A stretch of 64,000 nucleotides of DNA, taken from Ostreococcus lucimarinus. Lineage: Eukaryota. The translations under genes and the position numbers were made by a program. The stretch lies in NCBI GenBank assembly GCA_000092065.1, contig CP000584.1; one strand, 5' to 3'. The notes under the pieces are model-generated. The model did no database searches and had not been told where the DNA came from. It saw only the letters and a program-made list of their open reading frames with translations. Positions 21,501 through 62,300 of this stretch are shown here, piece after piece (position 1 is the first letter of the stretch; every line of letters starts with the position of its first letter).

Positions 21501-24500
21501 AATCTCGTTCGACTCGCATCTGAGGTTGGTAGACTTCTGCTTTCAGATTGCGCGAGCGTCGAGGAGTGCGCGCATTTGGACGGCCGTGATTTGATTTCTG
21601 AACAAAAGGTGGCAGCCGCCGCAGCGATCGAGGCCAAAGAGTCTAGGAAAGTCAAAGAGCTGCGCTCAAAAGTGAGTGAAAACTTTCTTTCCGAACGTAC
21701 GCGGCACGAGCAAAGGCAAGCGCAAGCCGAGACGGCACTGTTAGAGACTCATAAGTCTAAATTGGGTCCGGTAAGCGAGCGCGAGCGCGCACGTCGCGCG
21801 ATGCAGCGTCTGACGTTTGAAGAACGTTGCGATGTGCTCGCTCGTCGGTGGTCCGCGATGTTGCGCGACTTACAAGGTGAGCGAGGCGCGTGGGCGGCTG
21901 AAAACTGTGATGCAAAGGCGCACTGGAAACTCGACAAGTCTGAGGACTCATCGATGAGACGATCTCGTTTGAAGCGCGATTATAAGTTTGTGCAGTACGA
22001 AGACAATCAAAAAGGTGGCGAATCAACATTACAAAGCGATGTACAAGATATCCAAGCGGTTCGCCTCGTCGGCATGGGTCAAAAATGGAAGATGAATTCG
22101 GATAGCGACTACGTTGATGTCGATGATGTCGCAGACGAACTCGCAGAAAAACTCGCTGTGGACAAGGAGAACGCGATGCACAATAGGAGTAAAGTCGTGT
22201 TCAGCACGCCGGCATCACTCGTGACGCTCACGAGAACTGTACTGGGTAAGCTCAATGTCAGTCGTGATGCCGTTGTATTTGCCGCCGATCGTACGCATGA
22301 GAGTGCGAAAGATCATCGAAAACGTTTCTGGCGATGGAGCTTGAGTGAAATTGTCGAGGTACATCACATGCGATATCGCCTTCAGCACAAGGCTTTCGAG
22401 ATGCATTGCGCGGATCACACCAGTGCCTTTTTTGCGTTCGATACCAAGAAAACGGCGCGATACGCAGCTACGCGCGTGGCATCATCGGCGGGGGCGACTT
22501 TGATGAACAGACGTGCGAAAACTGAAGCAGCCGAACGCGCGAAGGAGCTCTGGCGCAGACAAAAACTGAGCACTTTCGATTATCTTATGGCCTTGAACGT
22601 CTTCGCCGGGCGAACGTTGCACGACTTGAGTCAATATCCCGTTTTCCCTTGGGTGTTGAAAGAATACGAAGCTGAAACAATAGATCTGGCCGACCCTTCG
22701 GTGTATCGAGATCTGAGAAAACCCGTTGGCGCGCTCAACGAAGAGCGTCTCAAGAACTTCGTTGAGAGATACAAGTCGCTGTTGGACGACCCTGACACGC
22801 CGCCTTTCCATTACGGCAGTCATTACTCATCGTCCCCGATCGTACTTTTCTTCTTGTTACGCCTGGAACCTTACACGAAACTCGCTCGAGCATTACAGGG
22901 CGACAGATTTGATCGAGCAGATCGCTTATTCCATTCGGTCGCGGAAACGTTCAAAGCTTGCGTAGAATCATCCGCTGATGTCAAGGAACTTATTCCAGAA
23001 TTTTACTACTCGTCCGAGTTCTTGACGAATACAAATGGACTAAAACTTGGGGTGCGACAGGACGGATCGACTATTGATGATGTAGTTCTCCCGCCTTGGG
23101 CCAAGGGTTCGAGGCACGAATTCACTCGAGTGATGCGGGAATCGCTAGAATCGGACTACGTAAGCGAAAATCTGCACCACTGGGTTGATTTGATTTTCGG
23201 GCACGCACAGCGAGGGGCCGCCGCGGTCGAGCGATGCAACGTGTTTTATTATCTCACATACGAAGGCGCCGTGGATATCGACACATTAGAAGATGATGAT
23301 CAACGGAACGCGATCGAGACACAAATCATCAACTTCGGTCAGACTCCCGCGCAAATTTTCAGGCGCGCGCACCCAGTTCGTCTGCCGCCCCAAGCGACAG
23401 AACACGTGGTTTCAATCTCTCCCGAATCGCTCAAACTCGCGACAGTTGTCTCATCCGAGTCTAACGGCCTACCGATGCGGGCGCAAGCGGTGGTGCACGC
23501 CACCGCGTACGATTCGCGTATTGCCGTGGTCACCGCTGGACGAATGGTTTCCATTCAGCGCTTACAACGTCCTGGAACGACATTCGGGCTGGGTGGCGTC
23601 GATCACTCAACCGCGTACGCGCTCGAACCAGAGACGACATCCCGGCTCATGCTCGAAATTGACGTCGACGCCGATTCGCTTGCGCATTCGCAATCCGTCA
23701 ATGTCGCTCTGAAAGGCAAAGTCTTGCTGAGTGTTGGCCATTGGGACAGAAGCATGCGTATTTTCGACATTGAGGAGGGGCGCGAGATGCAGCGTATCAG
23801 TGCACATCGAGATGTGACGACGTGTCTCGCGTTGTGCGAACTCGGGAGCTCGAGGAGCTGGGACGAGGCTTCGCACCAAATGGACCAAGTCATCGTGGTT
23901 ACGGGAAGTCGCGACACCACGCTCGCGATCTGGGAGATGGTGCTCCCTCAAGGAGGCTGGGGCTTTAGTAAAGGCACCAAAGTCCTGAGCGCCGAACCAA
24001 AAATGATCTGTTTCGGTCATGACGAAGCCATCACGTGCGTTGCTGTGAATTCATCGCTCAACTTGGTAGCGAGTGGCAGCATTGATGGCACCCTCATCCT
24101 GCACGACAGCCGGGATGGGCACATCGTTCGTGCATTGGAAAGCACCCCACCTGGGTGCATCCCATCGTCCATCGAATTGCTTCCAAAATCATCTCTCGTC
24201 GTGTGCGCGTGCGGCGTCGCCGGCGCGCTGTCCGTGCATGATGTCAACGGTGCCACACTCGCCAAATCGCTCAGTCGGCACGAAGCCTTTGACGCATTTT
24301 GCGTCACCCGCGACGAGCGACATATTCTCATCGGCAATCGTCGCGGAGACATCACTGTCCGCGCCGTGCATGATTTATCGATTCGTGCGCAAATCAACGT
24401 CGCCAACGCGGGCGTCGTCTCCATTTCACCCGTCGCGCGCGACGAGTGCCTCGTCGTCGGTCTTGCCGACGGTCGTGTGTGCCTCTGGGCGCCCGCGGCG

Positions 24501-24512
24501 CGTAGCCTTTAA
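15588..24512 (+). CDS. BEACH-domain and WD40 protein (LYST/neurobeachin family), 2974 aa single exon
   Basis: BEACH signature 'STFDYLMALNVFAGRTLHDLSQYPVFPWVL...FHYGSHYSS...LIPEFYYSSEFL...HHWVDLIFGHAQRG'. Preceding PH-like region and C-terminal WD repeats. ATG at 15588, TAA at 24510-24512. Confidence 0.9.
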   Translation: MNFIRRFANSSNPTLDARDATPPSTSAPDAAGARVELRSAETIDVPRVMNSMFDEGRDGDLVFSWQLMSGTANAGESSRREATNAFFDAFSETYARWEPARARGADEGDDSDVGCAVAHPRAVTLAAVEDAAGLGERLERALTGTVDVGGIEQRMASIGVETFRALEIMSRSAHNRVFMEQCGASRALANACKTCAQRMLTFSAGAASASKENSIEAGALLEALQHVVEHAVNVIDSFLGDAWALRSFNENGALLALIEVLRAEKVVVGRVHGDVRKMAISIERMAMRAIGRVMHGDAAVQKSIAGAGGLDIFFEGVYPIEADVSVDIAGFETSLMNLEISHTLLAGNKSNVERAQGIGLFTRVARLMRAANDLSETLVSDEASTSTTEGEVAGVPWSAQLLDDSLRCHEVIITDGYPSEVIKRLLKFVHQDTSAAGGWASKGAREMILKCLFDSIIEACSSSKESFKSDSECVRFRAHVLRFFSDAIDIDPAVLRVMRQARAWDMLLDADTYGAIPSVDHKNEYESVSESTTSILRRRVQIQTAALLLKACQIAAELSDCVDECNVLIGTITTRAIQPSVAIRLCRVLELLLIDSSHSVCKALSEVEAPGRLAGALNAQLKCWGCDQVAFIGEVGATANSAAFGSTLSALRACLNGPDVLAASALNNDGVSDLIFNELLWTNTTRDLAISAVVSLVGLRLHAPSPHASGAHREAWSSVARRFIQALPRARGTDITLLSAMLSGLRQMLNNPNGSGDSLREWISSEDGAEFVQIVALCDGDAGEEVGLDVIATLQAVISNSHSSASTFERSVGYDTLIDAIQCARGAGPVSKPLFDALMSFVIDDDYGTGGESSGIALRNAKALQMLLTLIGNLGASDELKDELLKAFKQMLSASVTSKATADAAGVLDFCLQWYVDANRRQAVLEVIALCSSFSMSTKHVRQIFRLLQGDSISADDQLQLLRVLQHSAKRVGPSTFFDFTGPGCGIHVNKQLTLPVRNGYTVSMWFRIERFPEYGGPVPLFSLLSGAGNGILGELHANKLTLGIRGSTGTVDTASIDITVRENEWTFLTIVHLPVRMSQPLVRVFLDAGMVGQAKLRYPIKSTEAISYCRIASVTFDVSLENAHVKVSPFFGQLGSTHIFDDALSQPAIAMIHALGADYVGRFKSTESQTERILQAISVNAVEARDTREYLADHRLISISAVTVAGRSAQSEVYDVNEYDLIGGAKVCVTNSVKDVVHCLGGVQVVLPIFSDILHAAETSKRRQIVCEGVHLLVALLDGSRLNQVTLTLCDGYALIANLLRENATTLLCPDLLPALDRLRRAGGIEHESASARIVVDLHLWSLADDATQKAHGEYLLSLATKHSDGLRFHLPTSDLIDALDFTPGASGTSRRRVLLDVLKQLVIDAPNQMIEETAETIVHVIEECADEDTVGDVLRWLVNCMQPGEEVQPTLYQAFTKLGGPLLALSPLSRSSRRVRSFALLWLANLMPPLEASSKSSGGASHISAAFGAAAGALTATLGGKFTATASQDFEVGFFTAVANALEKFPLDIAESRSALFELLLGGQALPAEKVAERLNREKNSSVRAAAGRLFAKVTGHGNDAQTKDKECISVGVPGIVNAGAAGVLLRLMNSSDNAEMRLSVLELLLQLVEGASVNAQAVLEQRGWQTWILPILKDHSDETQNDEKSMARRLITALLSHAVLKTDEGHQHVSNMLGVIDILIKRGVLADESDLAQELLSDLLECILPTRASSSEQDEWSEVQNVESPICRRNLSRLLHIFDSIISDTSATAAALGVPSASDAKSSVKKISWRFYDNLWNLLDAISPPGHPVDAPEETADAVKSTNMAQKLHRRAKSMIRDLPFSSNSESEFDSVEAVEALRKTCQRMGFRLTLLYVRASALEELQTALNTCIGLLPSFLAPVLVDKDGKAMDTAPLGNRAHLFIADLMRYVEFAKKSEDPDASTRSQLVVNLVRLASEVGRLLLSDCASVEECAHLDGRDLISEQKVAAAAAIEAKESRKVKELRSKVSENFLSERTRHEQRQAQAETALLETHKSKLGPVSERERARRAMQRLTFEERCDVLARRWSAMLRDLQGERGAWAAENCDAKAHWKLDKSEDSSMRRSRLKRDYKFVQYEDNQKGGESTLQSDVQDIQAVRLVGMGQKWKMNSDSDYVDVDDVADELAEKLAVDKENAMHNRSKVVFSTPASLVTLTRTVLGKLNVSRDAVVFAADRTHESAKDHRKRFWRWSLSEIVEVHHMRYRLQHKAFEMHCADHTSAFFAFDTKKTARYAATRVASSAGATLMNRRAKTEAAERAKELWRRQKLSTFDYLMALNVFAGRTLHDLSQYPVFPWVLKEYEAETIDLADPSVYRDLRKPVGALNEERLKNFVERYKSLLDDPDTPPFHYGSHYSSSPIVLFFLLRLEPYTKLARALQGDRFDRADRLFHSVAETFKACVESSADVKELIPEFYYSSEFLTNTNGLKLGVRQDGSTIDDVVLPPWAKGSRHEFTRVMRESLESDYVSENLHHWVDLIFGHAQRGAAAVERCNVFYYLTYEGAVDIDTLEDDDQRNAIETQIINFGQTPAQIFRRAHPVRLPPQATEHVVSISPESLKLATVVSSESNGLPMRAQAVVHATAYDSRIAVVTAGRMVSIQRLQRPGTTFGLGGVDHSTAYALEPETTSRLMLEIDVDADSLAHSQSVNVALKGKVLLSVGHWDRSMRIFDIEEGREMQRISAHRDVTTCLALCELGSSRSWDEASHQMDQVIVVTGSRDTTLAIWEMVLPQGGWGFSKGTKVLSAEPKMICFGHDEAITCVAVNSSLNLVASGSIDGTLILHDSRDGHIVRALESTPPGCIPSSIELLPKSSLVVCACGVAGALSVHDVNGATLAKSLSRHEAFDAFCVTRDERHILIGNRRGDITVRAVHDLSIRAQINVANAGVVSISPVARDECLVVGLADGRVCLWAPAARSL

Positions 24513-31000: not shown

Positions 31001-31677
31001 CGCGAGCTGCTTCGCCTGCGCCGCCTGCTGCGCCTTGGTGAGCTTTTTACCCTTCGGCGGCGCCTTAGCTCGTCCCTTGGGCGCCGCCGCCGTCGCTGCC
31101 TCAGGCATCATCGAACCCACACCCTGCGTCGGAATCATCGTCCCAGGTGGCACGCCGGCCATCATTTGCGAAGATCCTCCCGCGTATTGCGATCCTTGCG
31201 CCGCCGCCGCGCCGCGCAAAATCGGCGCCCCATTCGGTAACATACCGTTACCCCCCATCATCTGTCCCGCCGCGGGTTGCGCCATATTCCCCCCTAATCC
31301 CCCTGGGAACAACGCTCCCATCTGCTGACGCGAAGCCGCCGCAGCGCTCCCGCCTCCTCTTCCGCCCTGTTGCGCGCCTTGACGAGAAATCATGATGCGC
31401 GCGACGGCTTGAAGTCGCGCCTCCAACGTCGCCTTGTCGCAATACTCATCCTACGATCGCAAAAACACCCCCACAATCCAACCGTCAGTCCTCGAACGTC
31501 ATCACCCGCGCGCGCGCGCGCCTCAACCGCCTCGTTCGTCGCGCGCGCCGATCGAAACCGCGCACCTTGCTCCGCGCTCCGCGATACACCGCCTCCTCCA
31601 ATCGCAGCACAAAGTCCGGTAGCTTGTGTTTCCACTCGTTCGTCAATTCCGGTTTCCTTTGTTTAAACACTCGCAAT
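28091..31677 (-). CDS. CBP/p300-type histone acetyltransferase (main exon 28091-31450; upstream KIX exon 31566-31677; further 5' exons likely)
   Basis: HAT/KAT11 core ('KKNDDDLEEPWVQCDYCEDWYHQLC', 'YLSYLDSVKYF'). ZZ and TAZ2 zinc fingers ('LLHACKCRKERCENSNCPKIKHLLKHALSC'). Upstream exon encodes the KIX helix '...NEWKHKLPDFVLRLEEAVYRGARSK', which splices (GTGCGCGG...GGACTGACGG...CGTAG) onto 'DEYCDKATLEARLQAV'. Confidence 0.85.
31451..31565 (-). other. spliceosomal intron (GT-AG, 115 nt) within KIX-coding region of the CBP gene
   Basis: Donor GTGCGCGG after codon AAG (31566-31568). Branch motif GAGGACTGACGG. Acceptor CGATCGTAG in phase 0 before GATGAG at 31450. Confidence 0.6.
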
Positions 31678-32233
31678 CTGCGCACCGTTCGCGCGTCCAC
31701 GCCGTCGTCAGTCGTCCCTTCGCCTGAGCGCGCGTTCGCGCGCGTCTTCGCGACCTAAGCCTCGTCCGCGAGATCCGCGTTCGCGCCTCCCCCCCCCGCG
31801 TCGCCTCGCGCGCCGTTCGCCTTCGCGACGCACATGTGTTGAATCAGAATCTTCCTCTGCGGGATGTCGTCGTCCGATTGCCACGTGCGCCACGAGTGCT
31901 TCGCCCCCCCGCCGTCGCTCGCGCCGTTCGCGCCCGGCATTCGAACGCCCCGCGCCTTGTGCGGATTGACCTCGACCGACCGCGGTCGCGCGTGTGGGCA
32001 AACAGTCACGCGCGATCGTCGTCGCGCGTCCCGCGGGTCGCGATCGCGCGGCGCGCGCGCGTCGTCGCGCGTCCCGCGACCGCGCGTCGGCCCGTCGCGA
32101 TCGCGCGCGCGATGCGGCACGCGTTCGGCCGGCGCGCGCGCGCTCGCTCGAGGGCGTCGAGCGTCGCTCGCCGCTCTGACGCGGCGCGATCGCAGACGCG
32201 CGGGATTCGCGCGCGCGAATAGGGTCTAGGGCG

Positions 32234-34564: not shown

Positions 34565-35026
34565 CCGCGCGACGACGTGTGACGCCAGAGCGCCGCGCGG
34601 CGTCGACGCGACGACGCGCGACGACGCGCGACGACGCGCGACGACGCGCGACGCGCGATGTCGCGCAAGCGACCGCGCGCGACGCGCGATACGAGCGACG
34701 ACGACGCGCATCTCTCGACGGTGGTTCAAAAATCATCTTTGCAAACGGCGCGCGCGACGACGCGAAACGGCGCGAAGCGGGCGCGACGAGACGCGACGGG
34801 ACGAAAAGTGCGCGCGCGGGGGAAGTCGTCGACGGCGCCGTTGGCGCTGGCGGTGACGCACGATCGCGTGCGGACGCTGGAGGTGCGATGATTAGACGAT
34901 TGGGATGGGCGTTCGAGGCGACGGCGGCGCGCGGGTGCCCGGTTTGACGCGAGAGAACGCGCGCGCGCGAAGAGACTGACGAAGGCGCGCTGGCGTCGAG
35001 ATCGCGGACAGGAGCTAGTGGAGGAG

Positions 35027-38000
35027 ATGTGCGCGCGAAGCGGGCGACCGCAGCCGGTGTTGCGGAGGGTTGGGGACGAGGGCGCGTACGCGAACGCGCT
35101 GTTACGATCGACGTACGCGTTCGCGCCGGATTCTGCGCCAACGTTTTCGGGTAGAGGAGGCGAGCGTAGGGGTGGTGTGATGGATACCGTGCGCGCAGCG
35201 ATCGAGCATTCATTTCGCGCGTCGGCGAATCCGCGGAATGTGTTGTGTAAGGGGATGTGCCGACGCGTTGAGCGACGTGACGGCGGCGTTCGAGGCGCGC
35301 TTTTGAGCGGTTCGACAGAGGTGAGCGTGCGGTGCTCGACGAGCGCGTACGAGGCGTTCAAGTCACCGGTATGGGAAACATTTTGTGATAGAGTGGGAGA
35401 CGACATGTTTCTGCACATTTTATTGTACTGCAGCGTGTTTGTGAGAGTCGGTACGGACAGAGACACGCCGTTGTTGCAGATTTGTGGCTACCCGATGAAT
35501 GACTCCTCGCGCAAGCGGGCCATAACGACCGCGATGGCTACGAGTAAGACGCGAGCGGGAATTCGACGCGAACGGAGGGCGCGAAAGCGACGCCAAGATG
35601 AAGAGGCGGCAGAGAATTGCGCGTTGGAGACCGATTCCACCATGCTTGAGTCGAAGTGCATGTCCGAAAAGCCGCTCACCGCGAACCCATTCATTTCGCA
35701 CATCGACGTGAAGGAAGTCATTCGATTGAGCGACGTCTATCGTTGTTCACAAGATGTCTCAGTCGACGGGGATGGCGAGACTAGTGGACTGACGAGCGAG
35801 GAGGTGACTTTGTCGCCTGCCTCGACGGAATATCTGCAAACGTCGAGAAAGCGCTCGAAGTCGTACAGAAAGCCGAGTTGGCTTCGTAAGCGTGAAGCGC
35901 GGCTGAACTCAACGCATGCTCAGAGTTTGCGGACGCGAGAAGTGAAGCAAATGACCGCCGGCAACATCGTGAATCGACAAAAGAATGCGAGTTTGGGTAA
36001 CGAGGTGAAACTTGCTGACGAGGTCTTCGATCGAGGGGTGTTCATGTTTCGTTCAAGCTTCACGAAGAAACCAGGCTTGCCGGCGACGCATACTCTGCGA
36101 TCGATCGGCTTGGGCGTCCGCGCATCAAGGCGCCTTTACCTGACGATATTTAAGGCAAAAAAGCTTACGAAGGCTACATCGAAGCACAAGACAGATCGCG
36201 CTTTGCGGCAGGCAAAGAGTACGTATAGAATTCCGCAAAAGCACCGCGACACACTTTTACCGACGTTGCGGGCGATGTTGGACAAGGTTCGATGTTGCCC
36301 ATTCACGAACATCCTCAACAAGCACGCTCCCATGCCGCGTGAGCTAATGGTCTCCACGAAACGAGTCGGTGAATTGAGTCAAGCGTCGCTGTTATCTGCG
36401 TATACGGCACCACGAAGAGTAGCCGCCTTTGTTTGGGAAGTCATTGAGCGCCTCGTGCCCGTCGAACTCTTGGGGTCGGTCCAAACACGAAAAAGCCTGT
36501 ACGGTTGCATTCGCCGAATTGTGTCGTTGCGAAGATACGAGCGGTTTACTTTGCATGAAGTCATGCAAGGCATCCGAACGGCAGACTTCAAGTGTTTCAA
36601 GGCGAAAACGACCAATGCGAGTAACGCAGGACAGGTGGAGGCGAGTCAGCGGAGAATGGTCACCAAATGGATCAGCTGGCTCGTGCAAGAGATGGTCTTC
36701 CCAATCATACGATGTCATTTCTACGCCACGGATACGCAAACACACAAAAATAGGATATTCTTTTACCGGAAAGGGATTTGGTCTCGGCTCGTCACCGCCA
36801 CACTACAAAGCTTGGAAGAAACGTCGTTCAAGCGCCTCACGGCGAAGGAAGTGACAGCGATGATGGATAGATCGAATGCGTCCAACTTGGGGTTTTCGAA
36901 CATGCGATTTTTACCGAAAGGCTCGGGGTTACGACCTCTAGCGACGCTGAACAAACCGACGACCTTTGTCGTCAAGGGCGGCGGGAAGAATTCAATGCGG
37001 TGGTTGAAGAAATTCGATGCGATAAACAGACGGTTGAAAGACGTGCAGGATATTCTCCACCACGAGACAGTTCGAGATCCGAACGTCTTAGGCGCAGCCG
37101 TCGGAGATTATAAGGCGGCTCTTCTTCGTCTTGGACCGTGTCTACGCGCGATTCGTCGCCAAAAGTTACTTGGACGGCGTCCTCAGGCGTACATTCTCGC
37201 GACTGACATTAAAGGCGCTTTCGATAATCTTCCGCTCGAATCTCTCGAGCGCGTGGCCTTGGACCTAATCTCAAGCTCATCATATCAAACGCTTCATTAT
37301 GCCGTCGTGAAACAAAACGGTGAGGCAAAATATAAAAAGTTGGTGTCTTCCCTTCCGACCGCGGCGAAAGGCGAAAGAGTGCCGGGACCTCTCGTGACTG
37401 AAGCGCAGCGCGTTTCGAACACCGGCGGTGCGGCGATTCTTGGTAGAGAGAGCAGAAACTCGATCGTCATTGACGCAGGATTCGCTAAGGAAATTTCCGA
37501 TGAAAACATAGTGCCGTTATTGCGCGCACATCTACGAGAAAACATCATCTCTGCGCGCGGCAAGTTCTTGTTACAAACCGTCGGAATCCCGCAGGGTTCG
37601 ATTGTATCTCCGCTTTTGTGCAGCCTATTTTACGGCCACCTCGAACACGAGTATGGATTATTGAGCGGTTTCTGTGGCGAGCAATCAACCGTGTGTCGAT
37701 GGATGGACGACATGCTTCTCGTCACCACCGATCTTGATCGGGCCAAAGCGTTCGTCGACATGTGTAAGAAAGGTTTCGAGGCGCACGGCTGCACTCTAAA
37801 CACCACAAAAACGCTTTCAAACTTCGACCACGGAGAAGACGTACGACAAAGGACATTTGTGAACGCGGATGGGCGAAGTTACATCCCGTGGTGCGGTATA
37901 TTAATCGATTGCCTAACGCTAGAAATAATGGTGGACTACTCGAGGTACTCGGGAGAATTCGTTCGAGAGTCGATGAATCTACCGCTCGGGCGCAAGGCGT

Positions 38001-38497
38001 GGACGCGTCTACCCGAACGCATTTGTGGCTTTTTGAAGCCAAAATGTGCGGCTATATTTTTCGACGAGAGTATCAACAGCAAAGTCACCGTGCGCGTCAA
38101 CGTCTACCAGCTCTTCCTCATGGCGGCGATGAAAACACACAGCTACGTCGCTGCGACGAGCGCGATTCCGGGATGCGAGCAAATCTCATCGCTTGCACTT
38201 TATCGCGCGATCAAGCACGCCGTTCGTTTCGGACAAATATTGATACAGCGTCAGAGTAGCAGCGCGCGCGCGCACTGCAGTAGCGTCGGGAGACTGCCGG
38301 ACTCGCACGTTGAATTTCTCGCTATCCAAGCCTTCTTGAAAGTCCTTCAACAAAAGCAGACGCGATACAAGCGAGTAATTCAGCTATTGAACTCGCGACT
38401 CACCTCACAAGGCATGAAACGAACGTGCAGAAACGGTCTGCTCACACAAGCGATGGAACCATCGCGAAACACGATTTTCACACATATTAGATTTTAG
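35027..38497 (+). CDS. TERT: telomerase reverse transcriptase
   Basis: RT motifs 'FFYATDTQTHKNRIFFYRKGIWSRL' (motif T/1), 'RFLPKGSGLRPLATLNK', 'QGIPQGSIVSPLLCSLFYGHLE' (B'), 'WMDDMLLVTTD' (C). First ATG 35027; the ORF-track start is GTG 35018. Confidence 0.9.
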   Translation: MCARSGRPQPVLRRVGDEGAYANALLRSTYAFAPDSAPTFSGRGGERRGGVMDTVRAAIEHSFRASANPRNVLCKGMCRRVERRDGGVRGALLSGSTEVSVRCSTSAYEAFKSPVWETFCDRVGDDMFLHILLYCSVFVRVGTDRDTPLLQICGYPMNDSSRKRAITTAMATSKTRAGIRRERRARKRRQDEEAAENCALETDSTMLESKCMSEKPLTANPFISHIDVKEVIRLSDVYRCSQDVSVDGDGETSGLTSEEVTLSPASTEYLQTSRKRSKSYRKPSWLRKREARLNSTHAQSLRTREVKQMTAGNIVNRQKNASLGNEVKLADEVFDRGVFMFRSSFTKKPGLPATHTLRSIGLGVRASRRLYLTIFKAKKLTKATSKHKTDRALRQAKSTYRIPQKHRDTLLPTLRAMLDKVRCCPFTNILNKHAPMPRELMVSTKRVGELSQASLLSAYTAPRRVAAFVWEVIERLVPVELLGSVQTRKSLYGCIRRIVSLRRYERFTLHEVMQGIRTADFKCFKAKTTNASNAGQVEASQRRMVTKWISWLVQEMVFPIIRCHFYATDTQTHKNRIFFYRKGIWSRLVTATLQSLEETSFKRLTAKEVTAMMDRSNASNLGFSNMRFLPKGSGLRPLATLNKPTTFVVKGGGKNSMRWLKKFDAINRRLKDVQDILHHETVRDPNVLGAAVGDYKAALLRLGPCLRAIRRQKLLGRRPQAYILATDIKGAFDNLPLESLERVALDLISSSSYQTLHYAVVKQNGEAKYKKLVSSLPTAAKGERVPGPLVTEAQRVSNTGGAAILGRESRNSIVIDAGFAKEISDENIVPLLRAHLRENIISARGKFLLQTVGIPQGSIVSPLLCSLFYGHLEHEYGLLSGFCGEQSTVCRWMDDMLLVTTDLDRAKAFVDMCKKGFEAHGCTLNTTKTLSNFDHGEDVRQRTFVNADGRSYIPWCGILIDCLTLEIMVDYSRYSGEFVRESMNLPLGRKAWTRLPERICGFLKPKCAAIFFDESINSKVTVRVNVYQLFLMAAMKTHSYVAATSAIPGCEQISSLALYRAIKHAVRFGQILIQRQSSSARAHCSSVGRLPDSHVEFLAIQAFLKVLQQKQTRYKRVIQLLNSRLTSQGMKRTCRNGLLTQAMEPSRNTIFTHIRF

Positions 38498-38563
38498 GAA
38501 CTCTTTCATAGTCAAACAAACATCTCCTGTACTCATCCTTCTACTGTACTCAACAACAACAAA

Positions 38564-39803: not shown

Positions 39804-41300
39804 TCAGAGGTGCATGGCTGAAGAAAAGTGAGGCGCCCAGCGCGATTGCTTGGCGGCGAGCTTAAGGGTGCGGAAAACTTCCGCATTGGCGGCCCAGAAA
39901 CTGACGGAATGTAACCCTAGACCGTTGGCTTTGGCGTAAGGCTTGACGACGTCTTCGCGAAACGCGCGAAGCTTGTGTCGAGGTACGCGCGGGCACAGGT
40001 GGTGCTCGGTTTGAAACTGTAAACCACCGTGGAACCAGTCGAGCCAGCGCGGGCAGTCGATGTCCAACGTCCCAGCGAGTTGCATGTTCACCCACTCGTC
40101 GTTTTCAGGTCGCCCTTCGAAGACGTCGCGCGAAAAATGCGAGAGGCAAATTTGCACGTGGATGACGCCGGCGACGGCGTGCGAGAGGAAGAAGAACGGC
40201 ACTTTGTGACCCACGGGTAACTGAGCGATGAGCGTGGTGAGCCACGTGGCGAACACACCAAGTGTTAAAAACTCCATCGCTCGGCTCCGCACGCGCTTCG
40301 CCTTGATCAAGAAGATCAACGTCTGCAAGTATAAGTTGATGCGAGCGACGGCCATAATTGGATAGAACGTGTAGTGCTGGAATCGAACGAGCGTCCTGGC
40401 GAGACGGTCGTACGTCATGCGTCTGCGGTGATACAGAGAGTACACCGAGCCAAAATATTTGTTGGAGACCGCGAACACGGGCATGTGCTGGATGTCGGGG
40501 TCGCATTCCAACGAGTTGCACGCGCAGTGGTGGACGTTGTGCGTCGCCATCCACCACGCGATGCCGACGCCGTTGAAGAGGTTTCCAACGCACCACCCGA
40601 TCATGGCGTCTTTTTTGCGATCATAAGTGATCGATGTGTGCCCAGCATCGTGGCCGATGAACATACTTTGCTGCCAAAACAAACCGAGCAAGACGGCGCC
40701 GAACATGTGCGTCTTGAAACCGGCGCCCGACGACAACACGCACGCCAACACGCCGCCGAAAAGCACGACCAATCTCGCGATGATGAAGGCGTAATCCGTG
40801 AGATCGCTCTTCAACAACTTCTCACTACCCTCCATCGCGTCCCTCATCCGACGAAACGCCTTTAAATGCGTCGGCGGCGCCGCGCTCTCGTCCACCAAGC
40901 GCCCGATTCGAAGCGTCTCCAAGCGCGCCAGCGCGCGCCGCTCCCCCCCGTGATACGCCATGAACGCGTCCGTCGCGTCTCTCCCCGCGTACTGCTCCAG
41001 AATCGTGCTCCCCCCCGGATGTTTCTCGACCCAAGACGTCGCGTCGTACACCCCATCGCCCACGACGAGCCAACAATCGCTCCCGACGTCGTGCGAGCGC
41101 ACGTCGGCGCGCGCGTACGTCGCCTCGCCTCGCCGCGTCTCCCCCCCGACGCCCGTCCCGACGTCCCGCGCCGCGCTCGCGTCGCCGCGATTCGCCCGTC
41201 GCGCGCCCTCGCCCTCCCGCGCCGTCGCGCGCGTCGCGCTCGCGTCCCCGCGTCGTCGCGCGCGCGCGCGACGCGAGAGGTCCACGCCGTCCCGCGGCAT
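39804..41300 (-). CDS. front-end fatty-acid desaturase with N-terminal cytochrome b5 domain
   Basis: Cyt b5 haem motif 'HPGGSTILEQYAGRDATD'. Three histidine boxes 'HDAGH', 'HNVHH', 'QTEHH' (Q-type third box typical of delta-4/5/6/8 front-end desaturases). Multiple TM segments. Confidence 0.85.
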   Translation of the reverse strand: MPRDGVDLSRRARARRRGDASATRATAREGEGARRANRGDASAARDVGTGVGGETRRGEATYARADVRSHDVGSDCWLVVGDGVYDATSWVEKHPGGSTILEQYAGRDATDAFMAYHGGERRALARLETLRIGRLVDESAAPPTHLKAFRRMRDAMEGSEKLLKSDLTDYAFIIARLVVLFGGVLACVLSSGAGFKTHMFGAVLLGLFWQQSMFIGHDAGHTSITYDRKKDAMIGWCVGNLFNGVGIAWWMATHNVHHCACNSLECDPDIQHMPVFAVSNKYFGSVYSLYHRRRMTYDRLARTLVRFQHYTFYPIMAVARINLYLQTLIFLIKAKRVRSRAMEFLTLGVFATWLTTLIAQLPVGHKVPFFFLSHAVAGVIHVQICLSHFSRDVFEGRPENDEWVNMQLAGTLDIDCPRWLDWFHGGLQFQTEHHLCPRVPRHKLRAFREDVVKPYAKANGLGLHSVSFWAANAEVFRTLKLAAKQSRWAPHFSSAMHL

Positions 41301-41551: not shown

Positions 41552-41771
41552 AGGCGCGCGCGCGAGTCCCGACTCGTCGACGGCGCGTGTAAACACTACT
41601 TATACCCCCCTGGTTTCGTTTCTTTCATTTACTTCACCGCATCTCTTAAATACGACGCATTCGAGCTTTTCGACGGCCACCCAGGACACGAAACCCCGTA
41701 CTCATACGAACACCACACCGCACGCGCGTGGACGCGCGCGCGCCGCACAATCAATCGCGCGCGCGCCCACC

Positions 41772-43161
41772 ATGCGCGCCTGCACGCCTCGCGCGTCGAG
41801 CGCGAACGCTCCAGGCGCGCAAAACGACGAACGACGCGCGACGCGCGCGAAGACGCACCGACGACCCGCGGTGGCGTCGCCGACGATCCTCGTTCAGGGC
41901 GGCAAGGATCCGGAGACGACCACGAATGGGCTGTCGAAGAAACGACGCGCGGTGATCGAGGACATGACGTCGTTCGCGGCGGGAGAACTGAGCGGACTGC
42001 TGAAGGACCCGGACACGAATTGGCAACCGCAAGATTGGCTGCCGAATCCGGAGTCGCCGGATTTCTTGGATCAGGTGCGAGGGCGAGGGGGGGCGAGGGG
42101 ACGCGCGCGAGGGATGGTTTATCCGCGCGAGGGCGGTCGAGGGCGTTCGAACGAGACGCGACGCGGGACGCGCGAGGCGAGGTCGAGGCGCGCGCGAGAT
42201 GGGCGAGGGGGTGGGTGGAGGCGTGCGCGCGCGCGAAAACGCGGTGACTGACGAGCGCGCGAACGCGTCGCGATCGCGATAGGTGGCGGAGATTCGTAAA
42301 CGCGCGGCGAACATCCCCGACGATCTCTTCGTCGTGCTCGTCGGCGATATGATCACCGAAGAGGCGTTGCCGACGTACATGAACATGTTGAACACGCTCG
42401 AAGGAACGAAGGATAACTCTGGCGCGGATGCTCACCCGTGGGCGGTGTGGACGCGCAAGTGGACGGCGGAGGAAAACCGTCACGGCGACCTCATGAACAA
42501 GTACTTGTGGATGACGGGTAAGGTGAACATGAAGCCGGTCGAGACCACGATCCAGAAGCTCATCGGCAGCGGCATGAACCCTAAGACGGACAACAACCCG
42601 TACCTCGGTTTCGTGTACACGTCTTTCCAAGAGCGCGCGACGAAAATTTCCCACGGGAACACGGCGCGCTTGGCCAAGGAGGCGGGCGATCCGGAGTTCG
42701 CGAAGATGTGCGGCATCATCGCCGCCGACGAAGGCCGCCACGAGATCGCGTACCAGCGCATCATCGATGAAGTATTGGCGCGCGATCCCGACGGTGCCGT
42801 CCTCGCGTACGCGGACATGATGGAGAAGCAAATCACCATGCCCGCGCACATGATGTGCGACGGCCAGCACAAGGCGCGAACCGGCCGCGACCTCTTCGTC
42901 GATTTCGCCGCCGTCGCGGAGCGCACGGGCGTGTACACCGGCCACGATTACGCCGATATCATGGATCACCTCAACAAGCGTTGGGACATCGCCAACATCA
43001 CGGGTTTGGGCGGCGAGGCGGCCGCCGCGCAAGAGTACTTGATGAAGCAACCCGCTCGCATCCGCAAGCTCGTCGCTTTCGCCGAGAAGAGGGCGGCGAA
43101 GAAGCCTCCGGCCAAGGAAACCTTCTCCTGGATTTACGATCGTCCCGTCGACATCAACTAA
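41772..43161 (+). CDS. soluble acyl-ACP (stearoyl-ACP delta-9) desaturase, plastidial; two exons (41772-42074, 42283-43161)
   Basis: Exon 1 '...[19 protein letters not shown]' and exon 2 '[39 protein letters not shown]...[16 protein letters not shown]...[12 protein letters not shown]' are collinear with plant SAD/FAB2 (di-iron EENRHG / DEKRHE-type motifs). Intron GTGCGAGG...GGTGACTGACGAG...GATAG. Short transit-peptide-like N-terminus. Confidence 0.9.
42075..42282 (+). other. spliceosomal intron (GT-AG, 208 nt)
   Basis: Donor after CAG (Q) at 42072-42074; acceptor AG 42281-42282. Without splicing the frame runs into a Gly/Arg-rich read-through to TGA 42249. The ORF-track 'M' at 42283 is GTG, the first codon of exon 2. 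Confidence 0.85.
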
Positions 43162-43404
43162 ACAACCACCACCGTAGCGCGAGAAAGGCAATATAGCCTC
43201 CGCTTTTAGCTCTTGCCGTTGCGGCGTGTTGCTCGGTGCTCGACTATTCACGCTCAAATGTAAAAAGATTCAGATTCAATTCCCTACGCGATTCCCTGCG
43301 GCGCTTGATGGATGTGTATTATTATTGCACGCATCATTCCTCGAACCACGCGTCGAGCTCTACGCTAGAAACGACTCTGCGACTCGATCGCTCGTCGCGC
43401 ATCC

Positions 43405-44241
43405 TTAGTTTTCGCGCGTCGGCAAGACCGCCTCGATGGCCGTCCACACCTCGCTCATGTCCTTTGCCGCGTCGATTTTCGCGACGACGGGAGAGTAGTG
43501 CTCCAAAATGGGCTTCGTTTGCGAGTGGTACGCTTCGAGGCGCGTCACGAGCGCTTCTTTCGTGTCATCGCTGCGCTGCTCGAGCTGCTCGCCAGTCTCG
43601 TCGTCAAACATGCGCTTCGGCTTGGCTTGCTTACCCGGGCACGCCTTCAGGCTCTTCGGCGGGTTGAACGTGGCGTGATACGAGCGACCGCTCGCCTTGT
43701 GCACCCATCGGCCGCAGATGCGCTTCTCCAAAAGCGAGTCCGGGACCTCGAGCGAGACGACGACGTCCACCTTCTCGCCGCGCTTCGCCAGCATCTCATC
43801 CAGCTTCTTCGCCTGCTCGATCGTCCGCGGGAACCCATCCAAAATGAACCCACGCGCGCAATCCTTCGCCGCGATTCGATCGCGAATGATCGCCACGACG
43901 ATGTCGTCCGTCACCAATCCCCCCGAATCCATCGCCGCCTTCGCGCGTCTCCCGACATCCGTCCCCGCCGCCACCGCCGCGCGCAGCATGTCTCCCGTCG
44001 CGAGCTGCGGCACGCCGAGCTTCTCCGTGATCTTCGGCGCTTGCGTTCCTGCGTCGCGCGCGTCCGTCGCGTCCGTCAGTCACCGCGCGCGCGTCGTTCG
44101 CGTCGCGCGTCGATCGCCGTCGTCTCGCGTCGCCGACGCTCGCGTCTCTCGCGTCTCTCGCGCACCCTTGCCCGCGCCCGGCGGTCCGAAGATGACGATC
44201 ACCGATCGCGGCGCGCCGCGCTTGCTCTGCCCGCCGCCCAT
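43405..44241 (-). CDS. adenylate kinase; two exons (~44166-44241 and 43405-44048)
   Basis: Exon 1 '[26 protein letters not shown]' (P-loop), phase-1 donor GTGCGCGAGAG. Exon 2 '[32 protein letters not shown]...[10 protein letters not shown]...[19 protein letters not shown]' (NMP-binding and LID). Confidence 0.85.
44049..44165 (-). other. spliceosomal intron (GT-AG, ~117 nt) in adenylate kinase gene
   Basis: Donor GTGCGCGAGAGACG; branch GGTGACTGACGGACG; acceptor CGACGCAG. Splits the P-loop GKG|T codon. Confidence 0.8.
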
Positions 44242-57497: not shown

Positions 57498-58999
57498 TTA
57501 ATCATCCATAGTGTTGTACATGGAGAAGTCTGGCATCGATGCCGATGATACCAGACCCTTCTTCATTTTTCGCATAGATGGCGGCGCGCGCAAGCCCTTG
57601 TCAAGGCCAAGCTCAGCGATTTTATCGCGTTCTTCTTCGGCTTCGCGTGCGTCGTCGTCGTCCGACTGGCCCGCGGCTTCTCGAATCTTTGATAAATCCG
57701 GCACAGAGCTAACCTTGACGAACTTGCCCTTGACTCGCGGGCGGTTGTCAGCGCATGCTTTGCGCGATTGATACCGAATCACCTTGTTGAAGTTTCGATT
57801 CTTCCTCTTTTCCTTCCATCGTTTCAATCGCTCGAGACGCGTCTGCGGCTGCGGTAACCCGGCGTACGTATCCGATCCCGAAGGTGGGCCTTCTGGAATC
57901 GAGCGTAACGCGTCAGCCATCGCAGAATGTCCATTCGCATCCCCTGCGCCGCTCGATGCGACCGTCTGATTGTCCAAATCGCTCTCGGGTTCGCGTTTGA
58001 CAGCCACCGCGCTCAGCTTCCCCGCGAGAGATTCAAAACCCATATCGCTAGACTCAGGCGATGGCGAGCCGAACGCGCCGTACGATGGATTCAATTCTAA
58101 AAACCGCACCGCAGAATCGTCCAAAATTGGACCTAAAAAGCCGCTCGACGAGGCATACTCGCCGACCCGACGTAACGCCTCGATTTCGCTCTTCGACATC
58201 CCCACCGAGTCGCTATACTTGCTTCCCGATCGCTCCCCGTCGATTTCTCGATTCACCACCCCATCCTTCGCCGCATCTTCATCATCGAGCGGGTCCCTCA
58301 AGAAGCTCTCCGGATCGATCCCATCAGCGTCAAGCTCGCCCAAATTCTCGTCCCAAAACGCTCCGTCCAACGTTTCCACCGGAAACGACGACGACGGCAT
58401 CATGGGATTACTCAAATACTCATCGCATATCCCGATCACATCATCCGTCGTCACCTCAACGTCATCGCCGTCGCCGTACGCATCGCTCATCCGTCTCGAA
58501 TCCGCATCCTCCGCGCCGTGCGCGCCGACCCCTCGCCCGTTCGTCCCGAGCGCCGTGCGCTCGTGCTTACTCGCGATCGCGTTCGCCGCGTGCACGCGCG
58601 CATCGCACGCATCGCACAGGTACGCCTGCGTCACCGTCGTTCGCACCACCGTCAGTCGTCGCGCGCGTCTTCGCGCGCGCTTTCGTCGCCGCGCGTCGTC
58701 CGAACGTCCCCGTTCGTCGTCGTCGTCTTATCGTTATCCGAAGCGCCATCCTCTCCGACCGCGCCTCGCCGCCGCGCGTCGCGCGCGCGCGTCCCGCGCG
58801 TCGTCGACGCGTCGCGAGCGCGTCGTCTCCCGGTCACCGCGCGCGCCGTCGCGCGCACCTCGTCCTGCGCGCAGTACCAACTCGCCGCGCGCCGCGCGCC
58901 TTCGGGACACGATTCGCACGCGGCGCCCGTCGCGTCGCGCGTCGCGTCCTCGGCGCGCGCGCGATCGGACGCGCTCGCGCGCGCGTCGCTCGGCGCCAT
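57498..58999 (-). CDS. CONSTANS-like B-box / CCT-domain protein; two exons (58859-58999, 57498-58625)
   Basis: Exon 1 'MAPS...CESCPEGARRAASWYCAQDE' and exon 2 'AYLCDACDARVHAANAIASKHERTAL' together reconstitute one B-box (compare CO 'CTVYCRADSAYLCAGCDARIHAAN...HERV'). C-terminal CCT domain 'RLERLKRWKEKRKNRNFNKVIRYQSRKACADNRPRVKGKFVK'. Confidence 0.8.
58626..58858 (-). other. spliceosomal intron (GT-AG, 233 nt) splitting the B-box
   Basis: Donor GTGCGCGCGACG after GAC GAG; branch GACGACTGACGGTGG; acceptor GTGACGCAG before GCG TAC CTG TGC. Confidence 0.75.
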
Positions 59000-59329: not shown

Positions 59330-62300
59330 ATGCGCGCCCGGTTCGCGCGCGGCGCGTCGATGTCGGCGCTTCTGCTCGCGCTGTGCGCTTTGGCGTCGCT
59401 CTTAGGCGTCGCTCGGGGCGGTGGTTCGCCGTCGCCGTCCCCCGTGCACTGTTCGGCGAGGTGGATCGACGTCAACAAAGGGGGCTGCCCAAGCTGCGGA
59501 CCAGGCACGTATAGTAAGCGATACCAAATCGATCGCGATCCCGCGTACGATGGACGACGGTGTCCTCATGTCAACGGGCATGTGTCTTATGGACATGATT
59601 GCGAGGCACCGCCATGTCCGCCGCCGCCGCCATCGCCGCCGCCGCCGTCGCCACCGCCGCCGCCGCCGGGACAGTTTGTTCCCGTGCAGGTATCCATCAA
59701 CGATCCCGTGCCGAGAGTGTCAGATGCGTACGACTTTCACATTCTCACCTCACATCCTTCGTGCGATTCACAAAACGATTGTTTTGAGAGTCACATCGAG
59801 ACGGACGTGAGCGAGCATCACGTCGGACTCAGGTGCGACGTCACCGTGCAAAAGAAGGACCAAGTTTGTGCGACATTCGGTCGTCACATGCCTTGCAGGC
59901 TGTGGAATGACTTTTATCCAACAACTTTAACCCTCACGGATGAGCATGGTGACATCGTCGAAGGCGATTACGTCATTGAGTATGAATGCTACTTTGAACT
60001 CGCAAACGGCGAGCTCGTACCTGAGCCGACCAAGGTGAAGAAGACGCTGCACGAGTTCAGCGTATCCAAAGGGTGCGATTTGAAAATGAATTTGAATCGA
60101 GATTCCAAAGCAGAGCTCGCGGCGTATCTCCTCAGTGGCGCCGATGAATTCAATATCGCTGACTGCTCGAGTTTGAAGAGTATTTACGCCGCGAAGGAGG
60201 CCGTGTTCCGTATTTTCGATTCAAACCCGACAGATGGCCGACTCGATCACGAAGAAATCCTCATCGGTGTTGAGGCACACAGCATGGATACACAGATAGT
60301 GAATCATTGGAAGGACATCGTCGACGCTGAGGGTGGCGATGGACTGTTCCTCACACTTTCGAACTTCATGTCGGCAGACATCGCGCCTCGCGGTTGTCAA
60401 TCCGGCGCCGGTGACGTCGTGACGTTCACGGAGGCGACGTATCCAACGAGTGATCCTGGACGTGAAACGGGATCCAGGCAATGCGGAGAGATGGCGGGAT
60501 CTATGAAGACCACGTGGTCGTTTCCTCGATCAATGCAACTCGGCGATTGGTCGTGCGTATACATCGACGGGCTTTTGTACAGTCAATTGCTCGCCCAAAC
60601 GAGCCGAAACGCCGTATCGATGCAGAACAGCGTGACAGATATTCGCCCTGTCATTGGCTCTTTTCATGATGCAGAGCAATCTCTCGCTGCGCATTTCACG
60701 TTCGCAGGCGTGTCAAACGCAAGGCTGATTTCTTCAGAATCGCCGCGGGCGGATGGCCAAGAAGTGGTTCCAACCCTCTCCATCGATGATACGTATACAG
60801 GTAGTCTGCGAGTCTTCACGGCTTCTCAACACGGTAAACACGGGGCGTGCCTGAACAGCTGCCAAGGTTGTACCTTCCATTCGTACAAGTACATTGGGGA
60901 ACCGTTCAAGAATGATTTTGCCGTGTCGATGCAAATATTCATTCCTACACAGCTTTCGAGCAATTCTGGCTTTCGGAAGAAGTCGGAACCTCTCATGAGC
61001 TTCACTTCAGATGCATCTGGTAGTATGCAGCACAGCATCAAGTTACGATTGGGCACGGCACTCTCGAAGTTTTCACTTCAATTTATACATGAAAAAGTAA
61101 ACAGCGTGACGGGTCATCGAGATGAGCTATCAGAGCCCATTCCTCTGGGTGCGTTTGGACGCTGGACGTCAATTGGATTTTCTTTCCACCCAAAAGATGG
61201 TCTCACGTTGTACAGGTTCAGCGTTGAGGGAGGTAGGGTAACACATGAAATCAAGGTGCCGAGCAATAACGATGAGTGGAAATCGAGACTGCGAGACACG
61301 TTGCATTTGATGCACCGTCGTGAATTTTTCAAAGAGAACCGAATAGAATACGACGATCTTCGCGTGTACACTGGCCGAGTAAAGAACAACACATTCATAG
61401 ACGCGTATAAGTGCGACGCGTTGGGTGCTCAGTGTGCACCTCGAGCACACGCAACGCCAAACTCACGTCGCGTCGTATGTGTCATGCTGGATGTCCACGA
61501 CAGTAGTGGAGGAGACGCCCGTGCGCCGTATTCCTGCACCGGTGCCCTGTACTACGACGGCGGCGCCATTGAAGTGCGCGCGAAAATGGATCTCACTGGA
61601 GTCGCATTCGAATTCCGCGACACGGCTTGGCACGAATCATCTTTTGAAATCTTGCGACGCACGCACGATCCAAGTGGCGATAACGCGTTTGATACAGTCG
61701 TACTCGTTGACGGTGGTTTGAACGGCTGTGCGTCGATGTTTTCGTCGATTACGTATCTCGACCGAGAGGCTGGTCAGCAGCCCAACTCTCGCTGGCAGTA
61801 CAAGATCAAAACAAAGACGGACGATGTCGATGTAAGCTTTTTGTCGCTCACTACTCATTTTAAAACGCCTTGGATTGGTCAAATTGTGGGCGAAGTGATG
61901 GCCGGTAAGTCGGTTGTTCCTGTTGGCGAAGTCCGCATTTGCGCAGACTTCGTGAAGCCCAACGGTACTTTTCTGATGTATCGCAGTCACAATCACTCTA
62001 ATCTGGCTTTGCACATGCCCGTCGTTCACACATCTAATCTCACTATCTCAGCAGAACAACAGGCGCATCGAGCTACGGACGGCTTACACTTGAAGCCTGA
62101 CTCGATTCGTGTCGCAAGAGGACAGTATTTGCGCGTCAACCTCGACTATTGGAGCGCAATACAAGAGGTCGAAGTGTGCACCGCAACCGGAGAGAACAAT
62201 TTCAGAACTTTCGTGCGGGAGTTCGATCCGGGATACTCTGTGAATCACGGTCACGAGTGCAAATTACGAGAAACTAACGCAACCCAAACTTTCAGCGCAT

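Follow-up and report, generated by a model that had tools for sequence, protein, structure and literature searches.

The closest match to the introns described here is found in the canonical introns of Ostreococcus and of the Mamiellophyceae at large. Among the EST-confirmed introns of O. lucimarinus that lie off chromosome 2, 87.2% carry ACTGAC and 66.5% carry GACTGACG, the donor consensus being an atypical GTGCGTG of 4.8 bits (Irimia & Roy, 2008; PMC2483917); such strictness of signals in intron-poor genomes is a pattern found across eukaryotes (Irimia & Roy, 2008; PMC2483917). The canonical introns of all Mamiellophyceae have been described as singletons with a 5' bias, an AG|GTGCGT donor and an NCTGAC branch point (Verhelst, 2013; PMC3879977), and a 2022 preprint reports GYGCGY donors in the Mamiellales, with the U1 pairing region unmodified (bioRxiv 10.1101/2022.06.08.495308). 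A parallel is offered by the intron-poor yeasts (GTATGT ... TACTAAC), which share the near-invariant donor and branch site, the 5' bias, the few introns per gene and the logic of convergent signal strengthening, and which differ in that Ostreococcus uses GTGCGY and ACTGAC, has a GC-rich composition and belongs to an unrelated lineage.

The same algal class also contains the introners of Micromonas (IE-A/D-IE1 and IE-C/ABC-IE; Worden, 2009; Verhelst, 2013; Simmons, 2015; van Baren, 2016), which are likewise spliceosomal, occur in GC-rich regions, have a similar donor (GYGCGT) and, in the case of IE-C, an identical branch motif, GACTGACG. Unlike the introns reported here, they exist in hundreds to thousands of highly identical copies, have lengths that form uniform classes, occupy lineage-specific or polymorphic positions and prefer gene centres; the criterion for clustering introners is 80% identity over 80% of length (van Baren, 2016; PMC4815162). 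It was originally predicted from the 64-kb window analysed here (by which we mean the whole of that stretch of DNA) that its introns form an introner-like family. We arrive at a different reading, to which we assign a probability of about 0.93: the seven introns are regular (canonical), vertically inherited spliceosomal introns, and their likeness to one another comes from strict signals together with a shared regional composition.

Genes and introns of the window

The window is a gene-dense stretch of green-algal nuclear DNA in which ORFs and Pfam matches outline about 30 genes, among them those for a stearoyl-ACP desaturase (SAD), TERT, a CBP/p300-type acetyltransferase, gamma-tubulin complex protein 3, an ABCG transporter, malic enzyme, a plastid sigma factor and a 2974-aa BEACH protein. 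The ABCG protein is, residue for residue, XP_001417300.1 of O. lucimarinus CCE9901, and four further gene models are exactly those of annotated CCE9901 proteins. Seven introns in roughly 30 genes amount to about 0.2 per gene, a density that would fit the strict signals of intron-poor genomes. An Rfam scan of the whole window matched no RNA family, so the introns host no snoRNA or snRNA gene. The seven introns are as follows:

42075-42282, + strand: intron of the SAD gene, 208 nt, phase 0, after codon 100 of 393; 5' splice site GTGCGAGGG, branch site GACTGACG at 42246-42253, 3' end GATAG
1892-2060, + strand: intron in the gene of a predicted chloroplast-type protein (ATG 1850, stop 2666), 169 nt, after codon 14; signals GTGCGCGAG ... 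CGACTGACGAA ... ACAG
44049-44165, - strand: intron of the adenylate kinase gene (ATG 44241), 117 nt, phase 1, in P-loop codon 26; signals GTGCGCGAG ... TGACTGACGGA ... GCAG
58626-58858, - strand: intron of a CONSTANS-like CCT protein gene (ATG 58999), 233 nt, phase 0, after codon 47, in the B-box; signals GTGCGCGCG ... CGACTGACGGT ... GCAG
31678-31833, - strand: first intron of the CBP/p300-type histone acetyltransferase gene (ATG 31940), 156 nt, phase 2, after codon 35; signals GTGCGTCGC ... CGACTGACGAC ... GCGCAG, with the donor context CACAT|GTGCGTCGC at 31833
31451-31565, - strand: second intron of the same acetyltransferase gene, 115 nt, phase 0, after codon 73 of 1192; signals GTGCGCGGT ... 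GGACTGACGGT ... CGTAG
34883-35011, + strand: unannotated intron of the TERT gene, 129 nt, phase 0; signals GAG|GTGCGATGA at 34883, AGACTGACGAA at 34973, ACAG| at 35011

Six of these had been claimed before, and five of the six sets of coordinates stand, on the strength of transcripts, exact protein matches and domains; the sixth intron, given as 31678-31730, runs in fact from 31678 to 31833. Removal of the SAD intron, the one with which this study is chiefly concerned, brings ...PDFLDQ against the downstream exon (FLDQ|VAEIRK), and a 1307-nt metatranscriptome contig (L002), whose protein is 98% identical, aligns to 41771-42077 and 42281-43285 with nothing between; it thus leaves out exactly 42075-42282 and confirms the junction. 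The adenylate kinase junction, 44165/44166 to 44048/44049, is present in three independent RNA-derived Logan contigs (L010-L012); its spliced model is exactly XP_001417553.1, and the Pfam ADK profile runs unbroken over it. Checking the splice junctions in transcripts, as had been proposed, therefore bore out 42075/42282 and 44165/44049; none was found for the TERT junction. The spliced models at 1892-2060 and 58626-58858 are exactly XP_001417288.1 and XP_001417557.1, and in the latter Pfam zf-B_box, at residues 30-71, bridges the junction. Excision of 31451-31565 restores a KIX-like domain, and 31678-31833 is based on frame analysis and on Pfam KIX_2 at residues 19-81. Overall, transcript contigs stand behind two of the junctions (42075-42282 and 44049-44165), and annotation and homology behind four; the support for both CBP introns, as for that of TERT, consists of a restored frame, continuous domains and conservation.

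Three other features of the window may be recorded here. One unbroken ORF of 2974 codons (15588-24512, + strand), BEACH/neurobeachin-like and of about 53% GC, is the reason for the lower-GC block at 16-24 kb. The ~4 kb from 59800 to 64000 are devoid, in both orientations, of ORFs above 130 aa, have a GC of 0.49-0.54 (vs ~0.63 nearby), gave no Pfam match for the ten longest ORFs and no Rfam match, and include two short tandem repeats, one of 66 nt x 2 (62706-62834) and one of 27 nt x 2.4 (63723-63787); so empty a tract is unusual, being out of keeping with so compact a genome. Finally, a cytochrome-b5 fusion 'front-end' fatty-acid desaturase (39804-41300, - strand), lying between an RRM/CCCH gene and SAD, is missing from the syntenic place in O. 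tauri (9433-10001 of the O. tauri sequence L004), and was thus gained or lost between O. lucimarinus and O. tauri.

Shared signals and the comparison of intron interiors

All seven introns, that of TERT included, start with GTGCG and contain GACTGACG, whose branch A lies 24-34 nt ahead of the YAG end, as the original prediction had it for both donor and branch motif. The five at 1892-2060, 42075-42282, 44049-44165, 58626-58858 and 31451-31565 start with GTGCG(C/A)G, carry GACTGACG(R) and have a GC of 0.66-0.75, which, with lengths of 115-233 nt, agrees with their earlier description as GC-rich and of that size. AG precedes the donor in four of the seven and G in six, and GACTGAC is present in all five O. 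tauri orthologs. The positions are biased towards gene 5' ends, after codons 14, 100 (of 393), 25, 47, 35, 73 (of 1192) and 75 (of ~1236). In each of these respects, that is, a GTGCGY donor, GACTGACG near the 3' end, GC-richness, a length of ~100-250 nt, location at gene 5' ends, lack of mutual similarity and an intron-poor context, the set is the same as the canonical Ostreococcus and Mamiellophyceae introns (PMC2483917, PMC3879977). The one difference, that donor positions +6/+7 are mostly C/G in these seven vs the published T/G, comes from a small sample and is nothing of substance.

It had been suggested that the genome be searched for units of the form GTGCG...ACTGACG...YAG. Within the window, GTGCG-N(60-220)-ACTGACG-N(14-28)-YAG has 6 matches vs 1.07 +/- 1.09 expected from 200 dinucleotide shuffles (maximum 5), an excess of about 6-fold, and all 6 are introns of the present set, none being intergenic. 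Taken by itself, ACTGACG shows no enrichment over the window (14 matches vs 11.5 expected); 7 of the 14 sites fall inside the ~1.1 kb of intron sequence.

The sense strand of all seven introns is also purine-rich (G 0.40-0.51, T down to 0.04, GC skew +0.15 to +0.37), and no polypyrimidine tract lies between branch site and acceptor in any of the seven. The purine skew is absent from two of the five O. tauri orthologs.

Whether the likeness extends beyond the signals was assessed for the seven introns of this one 64-kb window by taking their interiors (the introns minus the donor and the branch-to-acceptor segment) and comparing local alignments with those of dinucleotide shuffles. Pairwise z-scores range from -0.6 to +1.9, apart from one pair at 3.3, which owes its score to a (CG)n run. 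The summed pairwise score is 737 vs 649 +/- 32 and was reached by 2 of 200 shuffles, a mild elevation that we attribute to higher-order low complexity, namely (CG)n runs and GACG words; a null with reversed partners (baseline 507) was set aside because reversal alters dinucleotide content (CG/GA direction). The internal block GTTCGAACGA that had been noted in 1892-2060 and 42075-42282 is indeed common to both, but every pair of introns has a common 9-17-mer of CG-rich low complexity, such as GACGCGCGCGCG, and a 10-mer found in two of them thus carries no weight as evidence of a family.

BLAST gave a similar picture. Intron-intron matches in the window reach <=41 bits and <=76 nt and often cover just the branch region; the best is 75% over 76 nt, and no pair nears 80% identity over 80% of length. 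Five of the seven introns have their best non-self match (<=59 bits) outside introns, in the CG-rich 5' ends of other genes. The introns have a GC of 0.72 and a CpG o/e of 2.0, nearly those of the first 200 nt of CDSs (0.73 and 1.94; all CDS, 0.58 and 1.56), and it is this likeness in composition that accounts for the cross-matches. Terminal inverted repeats and target-site duplications are the hallmarks of published introners derived from DNA transposons; in the seven introns, inverted-repeat scores of the terminal 40 nt do not leave the range of the shuffles, giving no terminal inverted repeats, and their junctions show no target-site duplication consistently. The lengths are heterogeneous, 115-233 nt, and do not fit ABC-IE (~64 nt). 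Neither BLAST nor the composite-motif scan turned up an intergenic or extra intron copy in the window. The all-against-all comparison of these seven introns thus yields no family, pairwise scores lying within the shuffle range, and what is seen is the situation that had been named in advance as refuting one: the same motifs without sequence similarity elsewhere.

Age of the intron positions

All five positions that could be tested against the syntenic O. tauri sequence (L004), those in SAD, adenylate kinase, TERT and both in CBP, are shared. The O. tauri introns are 185 nt long in SAD, 227 nt in adenylate kinase, and 142 and 137 nt at the first and second CBP sites; their interiors are largely diverged, and two donors, in adenylate kinase and the first CBP intron, are GTACGT and not GTGCG. 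Global pairwise identities between O. lucimarinus and O. tauri introns overlap (orthologous 0.44-0.63, non-orthologous 0.36-0.62) and are not discriminating in this composition, so position conservation was used instead; it indicates that the positions are inherited from a common ancestor with O. tauri.

The SAD intron can be traced further. In Chlamydomonas reinhardtii, FAB2 is interrupted at precisely this codon boundary and in the same phase (FLDK|VRELRK vs FLDQ|VAEIRK), by an intron with signals that are different and ordinary (GTGAGA ... CCCTGACAC ... ACAG). Since the position is shared with both O. tauri and Chlamydomonas, and the Chlamydomonas signals differ, comparison of the sequences indicates that this intron dates far back among the chlorophytes and became stricter in its signals where it stood, and that it is not an inserted element; independent insertions at the same AG|GT proto-splice site in SAD and FAB2 would be a less economical account. 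Two Micromonas-like contigs from ENA MAGs (L008 and L009; GC 0.65-0.67) contain SAD and lack the intron at FLD|V, which, given its presence in Ostreococcus and Chlamydomonas, points to lineage-specific loss. A 20-mer from the interior of the intron matched seven records in a metagenome contig collection; in five of them it lies in the orthologous SAD locus, between the flanking exons (94-100% identity over 327 nt), and the remaining two are unrelated chance matches.

Inside the SAD intron, 42112-42131 form an AT-richer island, GTTTATCC (reverse complement GGATAAAC, I-box/GATA-like), which is kept in O. tauri (~10200-10215 of L004), the rest of the intron having diverged. Similar GGATA words occur in introns 1892-2060 and 58626-58858, the 3 observed vs ~0.8 expected being too few for significance. 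The GGATA-type island could be an intronic regulatory site, or chance.

How, then, should the uniformity of the set be read? That it is merely what GC-rich sequence yields, and that the introns have been over-interpreted, could be argued from the unremarkable count of ACTGACG by itself, but with half of those sites packed into the introns, a composite motif well above expectation whose every match is an intron, and junctions confirmed by transcripts and annotated proteins, it is almost certainly wrong; indeed, the transcript contigs refute it. The original prediction, that these are introner-like elements, copies of a mobile transposon-like sequence that spread recently as in Micromonas pusilla CCMP1545, draws on the uniform donor and branch motifs, the GC-richness and a few short common words such as GTTCGAACGA, and might draw further on the presence of GACTGACG in the IE-C elements of Micromonas RCC299 (PMC3879977). 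Against it stand interiors that pair by pair look like shuffles and fall far from the clustering criterion, the varied lengths, the lack of terminal inverted repeats, target-site duplications and intergenic copies in the window, the single locus to which the SAD interior belongs in metagenomes, and positions shared with O. tauri and, for SAD, with Chlamydomonas. All seven introns, moreover, lie at gene 5' ends, whereas introner elements favour gene centres (PMC3879977). We consider a recent introner origin extremely improbable.

A variant of this idea moves the event back in time: the introns might be relics of an ancient introner burst in the ancestor of the Mamiellophyceae, with the splice signals alone surviving decay and Micromonas IE-C as a living relative. 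Like signals across unrelated genes and the GACTGACG-bearing IE-C of Micromonas RCC299 would be in keeping with such a burst, as would the fact that the positions of the six introns other than that of SAD have been traced within Ostreococcus only. For the SAD intron it is excluded, because a position shared with Chlamydomonas predates the Mamiellophyceae and its signals were remodelled in place. The burst is also at odds with the donors of the orthologous O. tauri introns, which vary (GTACGT vs GTGCG), and with the generality of strict signals in intron-poor eukaryotes that have no introner history (PMC2483917), so that for the set as a whole we hold it to be very unlikely.

Regular, vertically inherited introns under strict signals would account for the same features as follows. 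The spliceosome of this intron-poor lineage would require near-consensus signals: a donor AG|GTGCGY and GACTGACG ~24-34 nt before YAG, with no obvious polypyrimidine tract. From general spliceosome biology, the GUGCGY donor would be read by U1 and then by U6 snRNA, ACUGAC would pair with the U2 branch-point recognition sequence with its final A bulged, and the short, fixed spacing from branch to acceptor would lead to choice of the first downstream YAG. Location in the extreme 5' ends of genes, which are ~72% GC and CpG-rich, would add a common low-complexity vocabulary (GCGCGC, GACG, CGAGG).

A hidden intron and a probable upstream exon in TERT

A motif match upstream of the annotated TERT start had been taken as the sign of a 5' intron. 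The motif, AGACTGACGAAGG, is present, and so, judging from conservation in three species, is the intron (34883-35011); the proposed acceptor, CTAG at 35018, is not conserved, and the real one is ACAG at 35011. The motif can in this case be said to have located a hidden intron, as had been envisaged. It is preceded by a further feature:

34658-34882, + strand: putative first coding exon of TERT, 75 codons, MSRKRPRATRD...PLALAVTHDRVRTLE

The frame that opens at ATG 34658 ends in phase 0 at the donor and resumes after the acceptor as ELVEE-M, in which M is the annotated start (35027); the predicted spliced junction would read ...CTGGAG|GAGCTAGTG... This open frame, in phase across the intron, argues that the upstream exon is coding and not UTR. 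Both O. tauri (L004 4909-5006) and L006, the third of the Ostreococcus genomes, preserve the position, the signals and the coding sequence on either side, and each of the three has the upstream frame open, starting from an ATG. The block PLAL(A/V)V(T/Q)H(D/A)RVRTLE|ELVE(E/D) is conserved, invariant or nearly so, and differences by codon position number 7/6/14, mostly third. In L006, furthermore, CTG (Leu) takes the place of the annotated Met codon, and translation must therefore start further upstream there. ACH81296.1 (1156 aa), the TERT protein on deposit, is the window ORF from 35027, and from these comparisons it probably starts at an internal Met and lacks 80 N-terminal residues.

A protein search with the extended N-terminus found no transcript over the TERT junction, its two matches being the third Ostreococcus genome and a chimeric contig. 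The latter (L005, from the JGI metatranscriptome 3300019032) joins 34703-34774, in the first exon, to 37555-38531, in the 3' part of TERT, through a 5-nt microhomology. Both parts match the window at 100% identity, while nothing in it corresponds to the contig's first 236 nt. It is probably an assembly or template-switch chimera, and suggests that 34703-34774 is transcribed in the TERT orientation. The extended N-terminus gave no match to a TEN-domain model in Pfam.

As for the intron code itself, the alternative that had been offered alongside the introner reading, an exceptionally strict splice-signal code, is correct, yet it was already published for O. lucimarinus (PMC2483917) and for the Mamiellophyceae (PMC3879977; 10.1101/2022.06.08.495308). 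The code has been in the literature since 2008, convergent strengthening in an intron-poor genome included, and the introns of this window add nothing new to it; the one novelty lies in TERT, whose gene model probably needs correcting. The missing ~80 residues, if true, bear on the modelling or expression of this telomerase, and the strict splice code is a practical gene-finding tool.
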